Of a stretch of 64,000 nt of DNA, positions 5,002 through 10,507 are shown in pieces. A program made the translations under genes and the position numbers. The stretch is from an uncultured bacterium. Its GTDB lineage: Bacteria > Patescibacteriota > Minisyncoccia > UBA6257 > 2-01-FULL-56-20. Within the stretch, counting starts at the first letter, position 1; the number at the start of each line of letters is the position of its first letter. The stretch lies in the NCBI GenBank assembly GCA_963844965.1, contig CAWJQC010000007.1:96001-160000 (forward strand), read 5' to 3'. Below the pieces are notes generated by a model that made no database searches, was not told the origin of the DNA, and was given only the letters and a program-made list of their open reading frames with translations.

Positions 5002-6027
5002 ATGGATAAAAAACAGATTATACAATATATAGAAGGCGCGCGGCACTCGCGCATTATAACCTACCTTACGAGCGACAGGCAGGGGCCGTTTAACGCGCGG
5101 ATAGCGATGGACATTGTGCCGCTTGTGAGCAAACAGCTTCGGAATATAGGGAAAACGCAGAATATAGACCTTTACCTTTATAGTGTGGGCGGGGATACGA
5201 TGGCGCCGTGGCGGCTGGTGTCTATGATCCGCGAATATTGCGACAAATTTTCCGTGCTGGTGCCATATAAAGCGCACAGTGCGGCAACGATGGTTGCGCT
5301 TGGAGCGGATGAAATTGTGATGAGCGACCTTTCGGAGCTTTCGCCGATTGATCCCTCCACCGCGAACGTTTTCAATCCGATTGACCCGGCGAATCCGCAA
5401 AATCGCATTCCGATTTCGGTTGAGGATGTGATGGCATATTTTGAACTGGCAAAAAATAAATTCGGCATAAAAAGCGACGAAGATTTAGCCCGCATATTTA
5501 TGAAATTCGTTGAAGCCAATCCGCAAATTCATCCGCTCGCGCTTGGAAACGTAAACCGCATCCATAACCTTATTCGTATCCTTGCGAAGCGGTTGATCAA
5601 AAGCCACAAAACGCCGCTCAAAGAAGAAGAGGTGGAAAAAATCGTTGATTACTTCACCGAAAAATTATATTCTCACCAGTATTTCATCGGTAGAAAAGAA
5701 GCGAAAGACGATTTGGGGCTTAAAACCGTCGTTGACGCCGACGCCAATCTTTCCAAAGCGATGTCCGACCTCCTGGAGGAATACAACAAAGATTTGGATT
5801 TTGGGAAAATCTGGAATCCCGAAGGCGAATTGGGCGCGAACGCCGTGCAGACCCGAAAGGATTATAAAATTGCCTACATTGAGAGCCGCCAGCTTTCAAA
5901 TTATTATGATATCTCCGTTGAGTACAGAAAACAGCAGGTAAATATGGTCCAACAAACGCCGCAAGGACCAATTCAGGTTCCGCAGGAACAAGTCGGGTTC
6001 AAAATCATCGGGCAAGGGTGGAAATAG
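5002..6027 (+). CDS. ClpP/crotonase-fold serine protease-like protein (S49/SDH-family-like)
   Basis: Motif block YLYSVGGDTMAPWRLVSMIREY...VPYKAHSAATMVALGADEIVMSDLSELSPIDP resembles the ClpP-fold SDH/SppA proteinase family. Assigned by eye only. Confidence 0.45.
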   Translation: MDKKQIIQYIEGARHSRIITYLTSDRQGPFNARIAMDIVPLVSKQLRNIGKTQNIDLYLYSVGGDTMAPWRLVSMIREYCDKFSVLVPYKAHSAATMVALGADEIVMSDLSELSPIDPSTANVFNPIDPANPQNRIPISVEDVMAYFELAKNKFGIKSDEDLARIFMKFVEANPQIHPLALGNVNRIHNLIRILAKRLIKSHKTPLKEEEVEKIVDYFTEKLYSHQYFIGRKEAKDDLGLKTVVDADANLSKAMSDLLEEYNKDLDFGKIWNPEGELGANAVQTRKDYKIAYIESRQLSNYYDISVEYRKQQVNMVQQTPQGPIQVPQEQVGFKIIGQGWK

Positions 6028-6029
6028 CC

Positions 6030-6710
6030 ATGAATTTTTCTGATTACAAGAATTCTATTTTACTGCCCGATCAATCTGCTTGGCAACAGGCGGAGTATTG
6101 GATTACTGAATCGAATATCAATGTTTTCAGCTTTCTTTCCTCTCAAAACGTTTCCATCAAAACTACGAGTTCTTCTGCTAGAGAGCTTTCATTCCAGTCG
6201 TACGTTCAGAATTTGTTTGTCAACGACCTTTCGAATACAGCGTCAGAATTAAATAGTAAGGAATCCTTTGTTTTGTCTTCCATTAATGGCTCTTTGACTT
6301 TTGAAAAATTAAGCCCCTTGGGATTTCCGGCACAAGTTATTCCAGATAAAGAGTTGGGTTCTTTAATAAAATCAAACCAATTTCCACTTTGGGATTCCTC
6401 GCCCTTCTTTTTGAGAATGAAAAGGAATAGGCGCAGTCAAGCTGATATCGAGCATTTTTATCTTGGGAGATATTTACAGAAGAATAAGCAGCCATTTTTC
6501 GTTTTTACAAATGACGACGACCAGATCCGGCAGGCTCAGCTTGAAGGATTTAAATTTATGCGGCCGCCAGACCTTCTGGTGTGGATGGTTAAAGATACGT
6601 TTGTCACGCGACAAAAAGCCGTGTGGGCTTACGAGAAAGCAAAAAAACATAATGCGCGATGGGCGAAAGCAGGCCTAAGATTCAGAGATATTCTGAACAA
6701 GTGTAGGTAA
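6030..6710 (+). CDS. hypothetical protein, probably co-transcribed with the upstream protease-like gene
   Basis: ATG at 6030 lies 2 nt after the upstream stop. 227 aa, no recognisable motif. Confidence 0.4.
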   Translation: MNFSDYKNSILLPDQSAWQQAEYWITESNINVFSFLSSQNVSIKTTSSSARELSFQSYVQNLFVNDLSNTASELNSKESFVLSSINGSLTFEKLSPLGFPAQVIPDKELGSLIKSNQFPLWDSSPFFLRMKRNRRSQADIEHFYLGRYLQKNKQPFFVFTNDDDQIRQAQLEGFKFMRPPDLLVWMVKDTFVTRQKAVWAYEKAKKHNARWAKAGLRFRDILNKCR

Positions 6711-7756
6711 CTTAGCGCAATGCCCTCTCTTAACTGGATTGGGAAAGAAAAAATCGTAAATCACGACAAAGTTAAATGACCGAGTTGAAAAATCGGACTT
6801 TATATTTCGGCGACAATCTGGAAATCCTACGCGAGAAAATTCCCGACGAGAGTTTTGATTTGATTTACCTTGACCCGCCGTTCAATTCCAACCGTGCCTA
6901 CAATGTAATTTATAAGGAAGGGTTGCAGGACAGCCCGGCACAAATTAAGGCCTTTGAGGATTCTTGGCATTGGACGCCGGAGGCGCAGGCAACTTTTGAG
7001 GAACTTGTCGGCATGCGGCAATCAAGGACGAAAATCAACGCTGACATTGTCAATTTGATGCAGGCGATGGAAAAACTCGTGGGACACAATGATATGCTTG
7101 CGTACCTTACAATGATGACAGTTCGGCTCATTGAACTGCGGCGCGTTTTGAAGTCAACCGGCAGTATTTATCTGCATTGCGACCCGACCGCAAGCCATTA
7201 TTTGAAAATCGTGATGGACACGATTTTCGGAAAACAGAATTTCCAAAACGAAATTATTTGGTGTTATGAAATCGGAGCTAGAAGTAAAACACACTGGGGG
7301 AGTAAACACGATGTAATTCTCTTTTATACAAAATCAGGAAACTTTATCTTTAACACAAGGGCCGTTGCTGTGCCACGGAAAGAAGGGACACACATGAAAA
7401 CCGCAGTAGACGAAGAAGGAAGAGAATATCAAGAAAAGAAGGATGCAAAAAGTGGTAAGGTCTATAGATATTATCTTGATGAAGGCGCCATCCCTCCCGA
7501 TTGGTGGGTGGGAATTCAGCAATTAAATCGTGAAGCACAAGAAAGATTGCATTATCCCACCCAAAAACCCGAAGCGCTTCTGGAAAGAATTATTAAGGCA
7601 TCGTCTAACGGACCTCCGCCAAGTCCTTCGCTGATTGCGACAGAGACAGAGGAGGTGGAGGAGAATAGAGGCGATTGGGTTCTTGACCCGTTTTGCGGTT
7701 GCGGCACGACGGTTGCCGTCGCCGAGCGGCTGAAAAGAAACTGGGTCGGCATTGAC

Positions 7757-8326
7757 CCGCTCCGCCGCAAGCCCCGGCCTTTAGGCCGAGGATAAGGCGA
7801 CCCCGTAGCCCCGAGCGAAGCGAGGGGCGGAGGGCTTATTTGCCTGTTCCCACTGGTTTCTGCCGGTGCGATAATGAAGATAATGCCCTCTGGATTCTGG
7901 CCAAGCAACCACAGCTATACGCGATGTTTGTACCACGTTGTTTTCTGCCCAAAGTACCGCCGCTCGATACTGCGAGGGGACATGGTCGGGCGACTCAAGA
8001 CATTGTTCTTTCAAGCCGCCAAGATGAATAAATGGTTCATCCATGAAGCGCAGATAATGCCCGACCATGTCCATCTATTGCTTCAAATTCCTGCTACCCT
8101 GACGGTTGCCAAAGCGGTGTTTTATCTCAAAGGCGGTACGTCCAGGGCTGTCAGAAAAGAATTTCCCGAGCTGGAAGAATTCCTCTGGGGAGACAGCTTG
8201 TGGCAGGATGGTTACTTTGCCGAAACCGTTGGCCGTCAAAACGAAAAAGCGATGAGAGAATATATCAGAAACCAGTGGGAACAGGAGCCGAACACAAGCC
8301 GCGGGCTTTAGCCCGCGGTGATTGAC
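7757..8326 (+). mobile_element. minimal IS200/IS605-family insertion sequence (tnpA only)
   Basis: 570 bp carrying a Y1-transposase gene. Subterminal hairpins with TTTA loops at both ends (cggccTTTAggccg at about 7774-7790 and ccgcgggcTTTAgcccgcgg at about 8297-8318). ATTGAC is present at both junctions. Removing the element restores the MTase-Mrr reading frame. Confidence 0.75.
7874..8311 (+). CDS. tnpA: IS200/IS605-family transposase TnpA (HUH Y1 transposase)
   Basis: 145 aa. HUH motif HVHLLL, catalytic Tyr in DGYFAETVG, N-terminal YHVVFCPKYRR block typical of IS200 TnpA. Confidence 0.85.
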   Translation: MKIMPSGFWPSNHSYTRCLYHVVFCPKYRRSILRGDMVGRLKTLFFQAAKMNKWFIHEAQIMPDHVHLLLQIPATLTVAKAVFYLKGGTSRAVRKEFPELEEFLWGDSLWQDGYFAETVGRQNEKAMREYIRNQWEQEPNTSRGL

Positions 8327-8941
8327 ATTACGATGCTTGCCATCAATTTAATAAAACACCGGCTGATAGACGGCTTGGGAGTGGGACGGAACGAAATATG
8401 CACCGACGGTATTCCAAAGGACTTGAGCGGAGCGGAGGAACTGGCCAAAAAGGACAGATTTGCCTTTGAGTATTGGGTTTTGGATTTGGTGAACGCCGTT
8501 CCGGCGCAAAGCAAGACGAAAGAAAATATGCGCGGCGCGGACAAGGGGATTGACGGCATAATTACCATCGTAAAGTCGGTCAAGGACAATAAAAAAGAGC
8601 TTGGGAAAATTTTGGTTCAGGTGAAAAGCGGCGGCGTCCATCGCGACGACGTAGCCACGCTTAAGAGCGACGTTGAACGGGAAAAGGCCGTCGGCGGCGT
8701 TTTCATCACGCTGGAAAAGCCGACTCAGCCGATGAGAACGGAGGCGGTTGAGGCGGGAACGTTCAGGGTTGACTACTCCCAGGAAAATTTGCCGAAAATT
8801 CAGATTATAACGGTTGAGGACTTGTTGAGCGGCAAGAAACTGGACCTGCCTCCGGCCGTGGCGCTTCAGGAAACCTACTATAAGGAAGCAAAACCTGCGA
8901 AACCCGAAAACAGGGCAAAAAAATTGGGAATATAGAATTTT

Positions 8942-9595
8942 ATGAATTTGGATGAATTTAAACTGCAGAATTTGGGCATTGACAAAGAAAAATTCGGAAA
9001 AATTCTCAGCTTTGTAGACTTCGGCAACGTTAATTATTGGTATGAGAAAGACCGGCGCGACTGGGAGGACAACACCATTAAGCCGAATCAAAGATTAATA
9101 ATTGATATCGCAAAACTCGCTCAATTTTTGAATCTTTTCTCTGATCAAAAGCGCTTTTACTACGGATGGCACAAGCGCATGAAGAGATCTTGGCATATTT
9201 TGGTATTGGCGGAGAGAAATGGATTTGTTAAAATTACCAAACCAATACAATTCATAAAGCATTATCTTGAAGAGTTAGAGTTGGCGAGCGCAAACGGGAG
9301 GCTTGTTAAAGAAGACTTGATGGGCAGGTATATTGAAATTCCAAAAAGCAATTTTGATGTAGAGATAAGCGTTGATTCAATTCGTTTGCTGGACAAATAC
9401 AATACATTTTGCTTGCTTTCCGGCGATAGCGATTTTACTTATTTAAACCGATTTTTAAAAAGAAGGGGGAAGAAAATTATTGTTATTGCTGCAGGTCAAA
9501 TACTTCATTCCCTAAAAGAAACCGCGGACTTATATATAAACGCGCAGACAATTAAGGGAAGCATTGCCGCCGTAAAAGAAACCTCGCCCGGTTAA
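8942..9595 (+). CDS. NYN/LabA-like domain protein (putative ribonuclease)
   Basis: LLSGDSDFTYL plus KKIIVIAAG block characteristic of the NYN/PIN-like fold. Starts 6 nt after the Mrr-fragment stop. Confidence 0.6.
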   Translation: MNLDEFKLQNLGIDKEKFGKILSFVDFGNVNYWYEKDRRDWEDNTIKPNQRLIIDIAKLAQFLNLFSDQKRFYYGWHKRMKRSWHILVLAERNGFVKITKPIQFIKHYLEELELASANGRLVKEDLMGRYIEIPKSNFDVEISVDSIRLLDKYNTFCLLSGDSDFTYLNRFLKRRGKKIIVIAAGQILHSLKETADLYINAQTIKGSIAAVKETSPG

Positions 9596-9724
9596 GGGCG
9601 AGGTTTGGATATCGGATCCGTCTCCGACGGACAGGGTAGCTTGAGGCTACAAAGTAAGCATAGCATGGGCAATTATTAAAAGTCAATGAACTGTGGATAA
9701 TTAAAGGAGTAATCAAAATACAAC

Positions 9725-10507
9725 ATGTCCCAATATTACAAGCCGAAACGCGGCAGGAATTTATACAATCCGGCGAATCCGGAGCCGTTCGTCGTCAGCC
9801 GTTCCGGCATTGACCTATATATAGAGTGCCCGCGGTGTTTTTATCTGGACAGGCGTCTTGGCACCGCTAGGCCGCCGGGTTTTCCTTTCAGTTTGAACAC
9901 GGCGGTTGATGCTTTGCTCAAAAAAGAATTTGACATCCACCGCGCCGCGAACACGCAGCATCCCTTGATGAAAAAATATGGCATTGACGCCGTGCCCTAT
10001 GCGCACGAAAAGCTGGAAGAGTGGCGCGATTCCCGCCTTCGGGGCATAAAATTTTTCCACGAGCCGACGAATCTCACGATAAAAGGCGGCATTGACGACG
10101 TCTGGGTAAATCCGAAAGGAGAATTGCATATCGTGGATTACAAAGCTACCTCAAAAACATCGGAAGTTAACATTGACGCCGAGTGGCAGAGCGGATACAA
10201 GCGGCAGATGGAAGTTTACCAGTGGCTTTTCCGCAAGAACGGCTTTGATGTTTCCGACATCGGCTATTTCGTTTACTGCAACGGCGACACGGACAAAAAA
10301 GCGTTTGACGCCAAGCTGGAATTTAACGTCAAGGTGATTCCCTACAAAGGAAACGACGGCTGGGTGGAGGAAACGATTCGCGAGGTAAAAAGCTGCCTTG
10401 ATTTTGATGAACTTCCCGCGGCGAACGACAGCTGCGACTGGTGTGCCTACTTCGGCGCGAGAGAACGGCTGGAGAAAGGAAACAGCGACTTTATTGAGAG
10501 CGCGTGA
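9725..10507 (+). CDS. Cas4-like PD-(D/E)xK nuclease with Cys cluster (solo, no CRISPR nearby)
   Basis: RecB-nuclease motifs GGIDDV ... LHIVDYKA ... Y..Q, with Cys pairs CPRC (N-terminal) and CDWC (C-terminal) consistent with a Cas4/AddB-type 4Fe-4S site. Confidence 0.6.
   Translation: MSQYYKPKRGRNLYNPANPEPFVVSRSGIDLYIECPRCFYLDRRLGTARPPGFPFSLNTAVDALLKKEFDIHRAANTQHPLMKKYGIDAVPYAHEKLEEWRDSRLRGIKFFHEPTNLTIKGGIDDVWVNPKGELHIVDYKATSKTSEVNIDAEWQSGYKRQMEVYQWLFRKNGFDVSDIGYFVYCNGDTDKKAFDAKLEFNVKVIPYKGNDGWVEETIREVKSCLDFDELPAANDSCDWCAYFGARERLEKGNSDFIESA

Follow-up and report, generated by a model that had tools for sequence, protein, structure and literature searches.

At 707 bp, IS200 has been called the smallest autonomous insertion sequence (IS) known, and its classical expression control is a local stem-loop in the 5' untranslated region that hides the Shine-Dalgarno sequence (PMC4513863). 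In IS608, a short guide pairs with the cleavage site according to a fixed scheme, i.e. guide base 1 with C-3, base 2 with C-4, and base 4 with C-1, with A-2 left unpaired (PMC3201880). The IS608 transposase TnpA cleaves the element ends faster when duplex DNA adjoins them, and the IS200/IS605 family prefers to have its active strand on the lagging-strand template (PMC5027513). Here we analyze a 570-bp element of the IS200 group, with tnpA as its only gene, that lies at 7757–8326 of a stretch of contig CAWJQC010000007.1, from a genome of the Patescibacteria type (candidate phyla radiation), and splits a gene for a methyltransferase/Mrr_cat fusion protein. The whole stretch analyzed (64,000 nt) is called the window; window coordinates are used throughout, and L-numbers denote fetched loci that carry copies, relatives, or homologues.

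We find that this is very probably an intact and recently mobile, sequence-guided IS of the IS200 group that integrated 3' of TTGAC in the fusion gene, with a leaderless tnpA message and the roles of a long-range helix as its inferred parts. With IS200 of Salmonella and E. coli (IS1541, IS200S) the element shares a single Y1 HUH tnpA, subterminal hairpins, the lack of both terminal inverted repeats and tnpB, and a structured left end with two hairpins upstream of tnpA. It differs from IS200 in a TnpA that is only ~31–36% identical, in a coding sequence (CDS) that enters the right hairpin, in a -10 box that abuts the ATG, and in its length of 570 bp versus 707 bp, i.e. about 20% below that of the element cited as the smallest autonomous IS.

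With IS608 of Helicobacter pylori and with ISDra2, the shared traits are the TnpA fold and motifs (PDB 2a6m/2vjv, 2xm3; E about 1e-21), a guide 5' of each hairpin foot that pairs with the cleavage site and leaves the third-from-last base (A) unpaired, and insertion 3' of the site without duplication. Unlike these, the present element uses the pentanucleotide TTGAC rather than a tetranucleotide (TTAC/TCAA), has identical left and right guides and sites, shows spacings of 15 nt and 8 nt instead of 19 nt and 10 nt, and has neither tnpB nor an omega-RNA. It is a novel form within the IS200 group, with a conserved structural feature that we did not find described.

Borders, copies, and target site

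The first-pass annotation of this DNA had placed a 570-bp tnpA-only IS200/IS605 element at 7757–8326, and this placement holds, by a Y1_Tnp match, by a left border shared with two further copies, and by a right border shared with one of them. The element and its borders are as follows.

7757..8326, + strand: tnpA-only IS200-group insertion sequence, 570 bp, with the top strand as +; identical copies occur elsewhere and removal restores the host open reading frame (ORF)
7752..7756, + strand: left cleavage and target pentanucleotide TTGAC, in the host flank outside the IS; TTGAC precedes CCGCTCC... in all three copies
8322..8326, + strand: right cleavage pentanucleotide TTGAC, the terminal 5 nt of the IS; relatives keep the pentanucleotide and differ in the flanks

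Two short Logan contigs from public data, L001 and L002, encode an identical TnpA. At the DNA level, L001 is 100% identical over 7757–8320 and L002 over 7757–8326, and both lie at sites unrelated to the window; the annotation's proposed check for a repeated unit is thereby answered, as the same 570-bp unit starts at 7757 at both of these sites. TTGAC stands directly before the element in 3/3 copies (window, L001, and L002), with unrelated flanks further upstream. Because TTGAC is so infrequent in the window (~0.0012 per position per strand), its presence at all three left flanks is not due to chance. Within the window, the element itself is present once. Counted over both strands, the window has 154 TTGAC pentanucleotides compared with 120.6 expected, and 0/100 shuffles reach 154.

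The right border is set by the relatives of the element, which were taken from genome and metagenome collections; the lineage statistics given below cover 50 related lineages. In these relatives a pentanucleotide lies 2–7 nt after the right hairpin and is followed by differing flanks, e.g. in five TTCAC-ending copies from one genome (L010–L014), and L002 ends in ...GGTGATTGAC, like the window copy. Since relatives keep the pentanucleotide before differing flanks, TTGAC at 8322–8326 is the last part of the element, and the inserted unit is 7757–8326. Element DNA had no match among PLSDB plasmids (distant mode), and the exact left-end pattern had none among metagenome contigs. The closest TnpA in the species-representative genome set is 66% identical.

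ATTGAC is indeed present at both junctions (7751–7756 and 8321–8326), as first annotated, and this repeat in the window copy could be taken for a target-site duplication of 6 bp, which would imply a cut-and-paste element from a different family. We give this explanation almost no credence: L002 has TTTGAC on its left and ATTGAC on its right, L001 is without any repeat, and the reconstructed host ORF requires one copy of the site only. Moreover, the pentanucleotide is fixed for each element and matches the guide in relatives, and the element has no terminal inverted repeats. With three copies after TTGAC and a single site copy in the host ORF, the insertion is 3' of a specific short sequence and without target duplication, as in the IS200/IS605 family.

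On the + strand, GC skew is positive from 1 to ~60 kb, the element region included, and nearly all long ORFs lie on this strand. As the + strand is G-rich around the element, its top strand would be on the lagging-strand template, i.e. in the orientation that the family prefers.

The interrupted methyltransferase/Mrr_cat gene

The two parts of the host gene lie directly on either side of the element.

6776..7756, + strand: 5' part of the host gene, codons 1–327; Pfam PF01555 (E 1.6e-43, profile positions 2–210 of 221), aligns to intact homologues
8327..8935, + strand: 3' part of the host gene, codons 328–529 plus stop, with the end of the methyltransferase, a linker, and an Mrr_cat/NA-iREase1 nuclease-fold domain; identified by profile matches and homologue alignment

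On re-reading the sequence and its ORFs, the methyltransferase ORF that starts at 6776 reads ...NWVGID to 7756, where it had been reported to break off, and then continues for 12 codons of foreign DNA to a TAA at 7793–7795 inside the IS. The downstream frame starts exactly at 8327, again as annotated, opening with ITMLAINLIKHRL (ITMLAINL...) and running into the Mrr_cat-like domain (Mrr_cat E 3e-10, NA-iREase1 E 8e-12). Deletion of 7757–8326 joins 6776–7756 to 8327–8935 in a single ORF of 529 aa, which confirms the seamless frame that had been proposed. The restored junction at the DNA level is GGCATTGAC/ATTACG, and no host bases were gained or lost by the insertion, whose position corresponds to codons I326-D327.

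When compared with intact homologues of 487–605 aa, the reconstructed protein aligns over 98–100% of its length (best identity 73–77%) and has no extra residues at the junction; such a comparison had been suggested as a check. In an alignment of the 529-aa protein with ten intact homologues (11 sequences), the junction GID/ITMLAINL is gap-free and equals the family consensus. The first part is a beta-class N6/N4 DNA methyltransferase by its PF01555 match and by motif IV DPPF (residues 33–36) standing N-terminal of motif I DPFCGCGTT (304–312). By its profile match (PF04471, 40.6 bits against a cut-off of 21) and its conserved residues, the second part is a nuclease-fold domain with a D...QxK core (Q425-V-K427); D399, D403, Q425, and K427 are invariant in the 11 sequences.

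The order of methyltransferase and then Mrr had been called unusual, which is refuted here. A homologue search with the reconstructed protein returned at least 8000 proteins at E<=1e-10, and domain content was read for the best 120. Among these, 119/120 carry PF01555, PF04471, and PF22722 together and the remaining one PF01555 and PF04471. Most of the best-matching fusion proteins, including all of the named ones, come from Patescibacteria. This fusion architecture is thus very common, and abundant in Patescibacteria. The host protein is a full-length member of the PF01555 plus PF04471/PF22722 family with all invariant motifs, which differs from its relatives in being IS-interrupted and in a lineage-specific in-frame insert of 19 residues before motif I.

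This insert, of 57 nt (~7606–7662; GPPPSPSLIATETEEVEENR), lies directly before methyltransferase motif I, is missing from 10/10 aligned homologues and from homologue DNA, and holds a weak internal inverted repeat. We rejected it as a repeat or miniature element, as neither the window nor any fetched locus contains a second copy. The nearest homologue gene, in L110 (72% nucleotide identity), was likewise rejected as an empty site, as there is no synteny and the site reads TTGAT.

The insertion falls inside the Pfam methyltransferase domain, with the last 11 of 221 profile positions downstream of the cut, and methyltransferase activity of the truncated protein is doubtful on these grounds. That the nuclease is silenced and a truncated methyltransferase left behind is plausible. 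The Mrr half has lost its own start; an in-frame GTG at 8318, contributed by the right end of the IS, could nevertheless allow it to be expressed to some extent. This GTG lies 6 nt past the tnpA stop (TAG 8309–8311), and termination-reinitiation (translational coupling) there could yield a stand-alone nuclease-domain fragment of 205 aa at low expression. As an event, the insertion is ordinary, i.e. a mobile element knocking out a gene of the restriction-modification type. The knock-out could be reversible, because the IS200/IS605 family excises precisely.

A host gene that still functions through removal of the element at the RNA level, as in an IStron, is very improbable. Two traits would suit such removal, namely the shared orientation of IS and host gene and the helix described below, which joins the two IS ends, but an Rfam search over 7400–8700 at E<=1 gives no group I or II intron, only a chance miRNA match. 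The 570 bp are filled by tnpA, with no space for a ribozyme, and the L001 copy is antisense to its flanking genes.

Transposase, end hairpins, and guides

The following features make up the coding and recognition parts of the element.

7874..8311, + strand: tnpA, 145 aa from ATG 7874 (or 142 aa for a leaderless start at ATG 7883); H65/H67, Y130, Q134; stop TAG 8309–8311 in the loop of the right hairpin
7768..7771, + strand: left guide tetranucleotide CAAG, adjoining the 5' foot of the left hairpin; covaries with the cleavage pentanucleotide
7772..7791, + strand: left subterminal imperfect palindrome (CCCCGGCC-TTTA-GGCCGAGG) with one C.A mismatch; stems covary among relatives
8295..8298, + strand: right guide tetranucleotide CAAG, directly 5' of the right hairpin
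8299..8318, + strand: right subterminal palindrome (CCGCGGGC-TTTA-GCCCGCGG), perfect; stems covary among relatives

TnpA matches Pfam Y1_Tnp (PF01797) with E 9e-39 and NCBIfam transpos_IS200 (NF033573) with 130.8 bits (cut-off 55). The HUH motif and catalytic tyrosine that were first annotated are in register with ISHp608 TnpA (PDB 2a6m, E 3.8e-21), with HVH on HIH and Y130 of REYIRNQ on Y127 of KQYIENQ. In 26 homologues, HUH (H65-V-H67), Y130, and Q134 (YxxxQ, Y130-IRN-Q134) are invariant or nearly so. There is no tnpB or iscB, and tnpA is the only ORF with a family match within the 570 bp.

The TTTA-loop hairpins reported for both ends are present at 7772–7791 and 8299–8318. These GC-rich hairpins are direct repeats of each other (83%), so that the element has subterminal palindromes in the same orientation and no terminal inverted repeats, as is typical of the family. 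The TTTA-hairpin motif has 2 matches in the 64-kb window against 0.06 expected.

A domesticated REP-associated tyrosine transposase (RAYT) with REP hairpins, rather than a mobile IS, would also have GC-rich hairpins flanking the gene, and TnpA does score weakly against NCBIfam REP_Tyr_transpos (38.6 bits). This score is far under the cut-off of 80, however, in a protein that passes transpos_IS200. The hairpin motif occurs just twice in 64 kb, identical copies are found at three unrelated sites, and the unit splits an ORF seamlessly, all of which makes a RAYT extremely improbable.

Recognition of target and right end by a sequence guide had been proposed at first pass, and covariation between guides and cleavage sites in relatives bears this out. 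Six combinations of guide and site are found in these, namely CAAG/TTGAC, GAAG/TTCAC, GAAA/TTCAT, AAAG/TTTAC, TAAG/TTAAC, and AAAA/TTTAT. In L092 the two ends even differ, with TAAG/TTAAC at the left and GAAG/TTCAC at the right. The covariation follows the IS608 scheme, here with one T:A pair in addition, and cleavage is specified by the guide. Extended by a fifth base and spread over many natural variants, the IS608 guide/cleavage code becomes a table for predicting or reprogramming targets.

One locus, L095, is a defective relative of L093 in which, ~70 nt upstream of its tnpA, the left hairpin and the second stem-loop (see below) were deleted between short direct repeats (CTAGG ... TAGGG). 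In L095, the TTGAC border, arm 1 of the helix, and tnpA are retained.

Compaction and the putative tnpA promoter

The element and its relatives are ~540–590 bp long, sizes that for the relatives are approximate and come from pattern-based delimitation. Compaction shows at the right end: the CDS extends across the right guide and as far as the loop of the right hairpin, which holds the TAG stop. In some relatives the CDS is shorter and finishes with QWEQE*. Between the left hairpin and tnpA we find two further features.

7801..7835, + strand: second left-end stem-loop, with outer CCC/GGG and inner GCCCC/GGGGC stems around GCGAAGC; in predicted folds, recurs in relatives
7867..7875, + strand: extended -10-like box TGcGATAAT, with TTCCCA (7847–7852) at a spacing of 17

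The second stem-loop has conserved flanks (GCCC(C)G(G/T)AG ... CGGAGG) and is found in both clades of relatives, where the inner stems covary. Rfam has no match for it. In L094 it is identical to that of the window copy although the L094 TnpA is only 57% identical.

TTCCCA-17-TGcGATAAT is the only promoter-like site on the + strand and ends 7 nt before the second ATG (7883). In 22/50 of the related lineages, the distance from the end of a -10-like hexamer to the ATG is exactly 6 nt, compared with 1.1 expected. A hexamer ending 4–9 nt before the ATG is present in 31/50, and 20 of these 31 also have TG at -15/-14. There is no Shine-Dalgarno sequence before either ATG (7874, 7883), and no local hairpin over the start in the predicted DNA and RNA folds. 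As judged from these patterns, the tnpA message is probably leaderless and made from an extended -10 promoter directly adjoining the ATG.

The stem-loop control of classical IS200, which there is joined by the antisense RNA art200, is therefore not that of this element, which has no Shine-Dalgarno sequence and no local stem-loop to hide one, and has a long-range helix instead. By contrast, IS200C and IS1541B carry a local AAACCCCTTTTGATTT...AAATCAAAAGGGGGT stem that hides the Shine-Dalgarno sequence and have no long-range helix. Public gene calls for the transposase (protein P0121) begin at an internal Met (7982–8311; 109 aa, MVGRLKT...). The likely reason is that the true start lacks a preceding Shine-Dalgarno sequence, in keeping with a leaderless mRNA.

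Other promoters were considered and rejected. An antisense promoter from an inverted copy of arm 1 has its nearest -10-like hexamer only 11–14 nt away, and a single-stranded-DNA promoter (Frpo-like) fails because tnpA mRNA cannot be copied from the active top strand, which is the sense strand.

A covarying long-range helix

Two distant segments of the element are perfectly complementary.

7843..7862, + strand: helix arm 1 (CCTGTTCCCACTGGTTTCTG), overlapping the -35 and spacer of the putative tnpA promoter; perfect 20-nt complement of 8266–8285
8266..8285, + strand: helix arm 2 (CAGAAACCAGTGGGAACAGG), over codons RNQWEQE just after the catalytic YxxxQ; perfect complement of arm 1, with covariation

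The long-range helix formed by these arms is real and shows covariation in about 30 lineages. At both arm positions the sequences of relatives differ but are again complementary, over 11–24 nt; shuffles average 6.5, with a maximum that is usually 10–12. The longest exact 5'/3' complementary run averages 12.2 nt within the same element versus 6.6 nt across different elements (50 lineages). In a MAFFT alignment that was not fitted to the structure, with shuffles (500) and slid partners as controls, 90.5% of the cells are paired versus 74.9% in shuffles and 40–50% with slid partners. Changes on both sides occur in 14/20 helix pairs, a number that 0/500 shuffles reach. The helix is also part of the minimum-free-energy and centroid folds, and the fold of the whole element is unusually stable, with z-scores of -4.7 as DNA and -5.75 as RNA.

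RNAduplex energies with long flanks are noisy, since left and right hairpins cross-pair, and strands were compared instead through exact-run, alignment-based, and wobble counts. Positions on the top strand that are not Watson-Crick pairs are G.T in 12–13 cases versus A.C in 0–3, a bias that points to selection on the top strand or on the sense RNA. The position of the arms differs between clades; in relatives with a TnpA of 130–135 aa, the 3' arm lies just past the stop and the 5' arm covers -16..+6.

In IS200C, IS1541B, and IS200S we see background complementarity only (5–8 nt) and no helix, i.e. the conserved long-range helix is a feature that classical IS200 does without. A leaderless or long-range feature of IS200 was not found in the literature searched, which is not proof of absence and leaves ISfinder outside the comparison.

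The helix may work in single-stranded DNA, a role that we propose tentatively and somewhat short of an even chance. Its arms would close off a coding loop of ~400 nt and set the left module (guide, hairpin, and second stem-loop) beside the right module (guide, hairpin, and TTGAC), favoring synapsis and excision by a TnpA dimer and supplying duplex beside the single-stranded ends. Such adjoining duplex DNA is what speeds end cleavage by IS608 TnpA (PMC5027513). In both clades the arms lie just inside the end-recognition modules, and arm 2 ends 11–13 nt before the right hairpin whether it is within the CDS or past the stop. The helix is present in the DNA fold, and a bias toward G.T and not A.C indicates selection on one strand. 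Selection on the sense RNA predicts an equal strand bias, however, and classical IS200 and IS608 do without such a helix. If the DNA role is true, the helix is a new cis-acting component of single-strand transposition.

Fold-back inhibition of read-through transcripts is known from IS10 and IS50, where a 5' arm upstream of the element's own start pairs only in incoming transcripts. The helix could act in RNA in a comparable way, protecting against outside transcription, which we regard as possible but on the doubtful side. Arm 1 would be present only in read-through transcripts and pair with arm 2, thereby hiding the start region (in the short clade) or forming a duplex of 12–24 bp that blocks or destroys the message. 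The likeness to IS10/IS50 is one of working only, as the partner there is local, i.e. the start region, and here lies ~400 nt away at the 3' end.

Several observations agree with this RNA role. A -10 hexamer 6 nt before the ATG (22/50 lineages) puts arm 1 outside the native mRNA in the window clade, and the same geometry puts it across -16..+6 in the 130–135 aa clade. The sense strand shows the G.U bias, the RNA fold (z -5.75) includes the helix, and classical IS200 uses a local stem-loop hiding the Shine-Dalgarno sequence instead (PMC4513863). Against it, a partner 400 nt downstream is a slow means of hiding a start site, and in the window clade the ATG lies outside the helix, which ends 11–20 nt upstream of it. 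If protection at the RNA level is true, it would be a new form of defense against transcription from outside that is tied to a leaderless mRNA for the transposase.

More broadly, the element may belong to an undescribed, ultra-compact subgroup of IS200 (~540–590 bp) found in Patescibacteria, Nitrospirota, Deltaproteobacteria, and other phyla, in which local translational control is replaced by a leaderless promoter and a covarying, strand-specific helix. In the strongest version of this proposal, which we put forward with reserve, the helix would be a cis-acting structure of single-stranded DNA that joins the ends for the TnpA dimer, an architectural element not known to have been described for "peel-and-paste" transposition.

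Proposed mobility and points against it

For the IS200-group element as we read it, movement would proceed through a single-stranded circle ("peel and paste") on the lagging-strand template, with integration 3' of TTGAC. The Y1 HUH transposase should recognize both subterminal hairpins, and CAAG 5' of each hairpin specifies the cleavage sites (target TTGAC on the left, terminal TTGAC on the right) by the IS608 code. The circular intermediate would carry a junction of right and left ends, ...GGTGATTGAC/CCGCTCCGCC..., and precise excision would restore the host gene.

Some of our data weigh against this reading. The terminal TTGAC is missing in 1/3 copies: L001 ends in ...GGTGAT and then meets, on the other strand, the 3' end of a gene for an rve-type (DDE) transposase (L001 909–1184; ERR11596056). 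From the adjoining sequence, the L001 tip was likely lost by a nested IS insertion or by an assembly join at repeats. Neither an empty site from the same species nor a circle junction was recovered among the retrieved sequences, and excision and activity are for this reason inferred and not observed. In addition, the -10 box of the window copy lies 7 nt, and not 6 nt, before the second ATG, and the leaderless promoter and the two helix roles are proposed from sequence patterns only.

Internal repeat and gene neighborhood

One further structural feature lies within tnpA.

7978..8072, + strand: internal perfect 14-nt inverted repeat (7978–7991 with 8059–8072), the second arm over the HUH codons; in predicted DNA and RNA folds

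In the closest relative, L003, this repeat is 12 nt long and shows a compensatory change from A:T to G:C; it is missing in more distant relatives.

The genes on both sides of the interrupted fusion gene (5002–6710 and 8942–10507) encode an SDH-type ClpP-like protease, an unassigned protein of 230 aa, an NYN-domain protein, and a Cas4-like PD-(D/E)XK nuclease. Judged by these predicted products, the neighborhood resembles a defense island.

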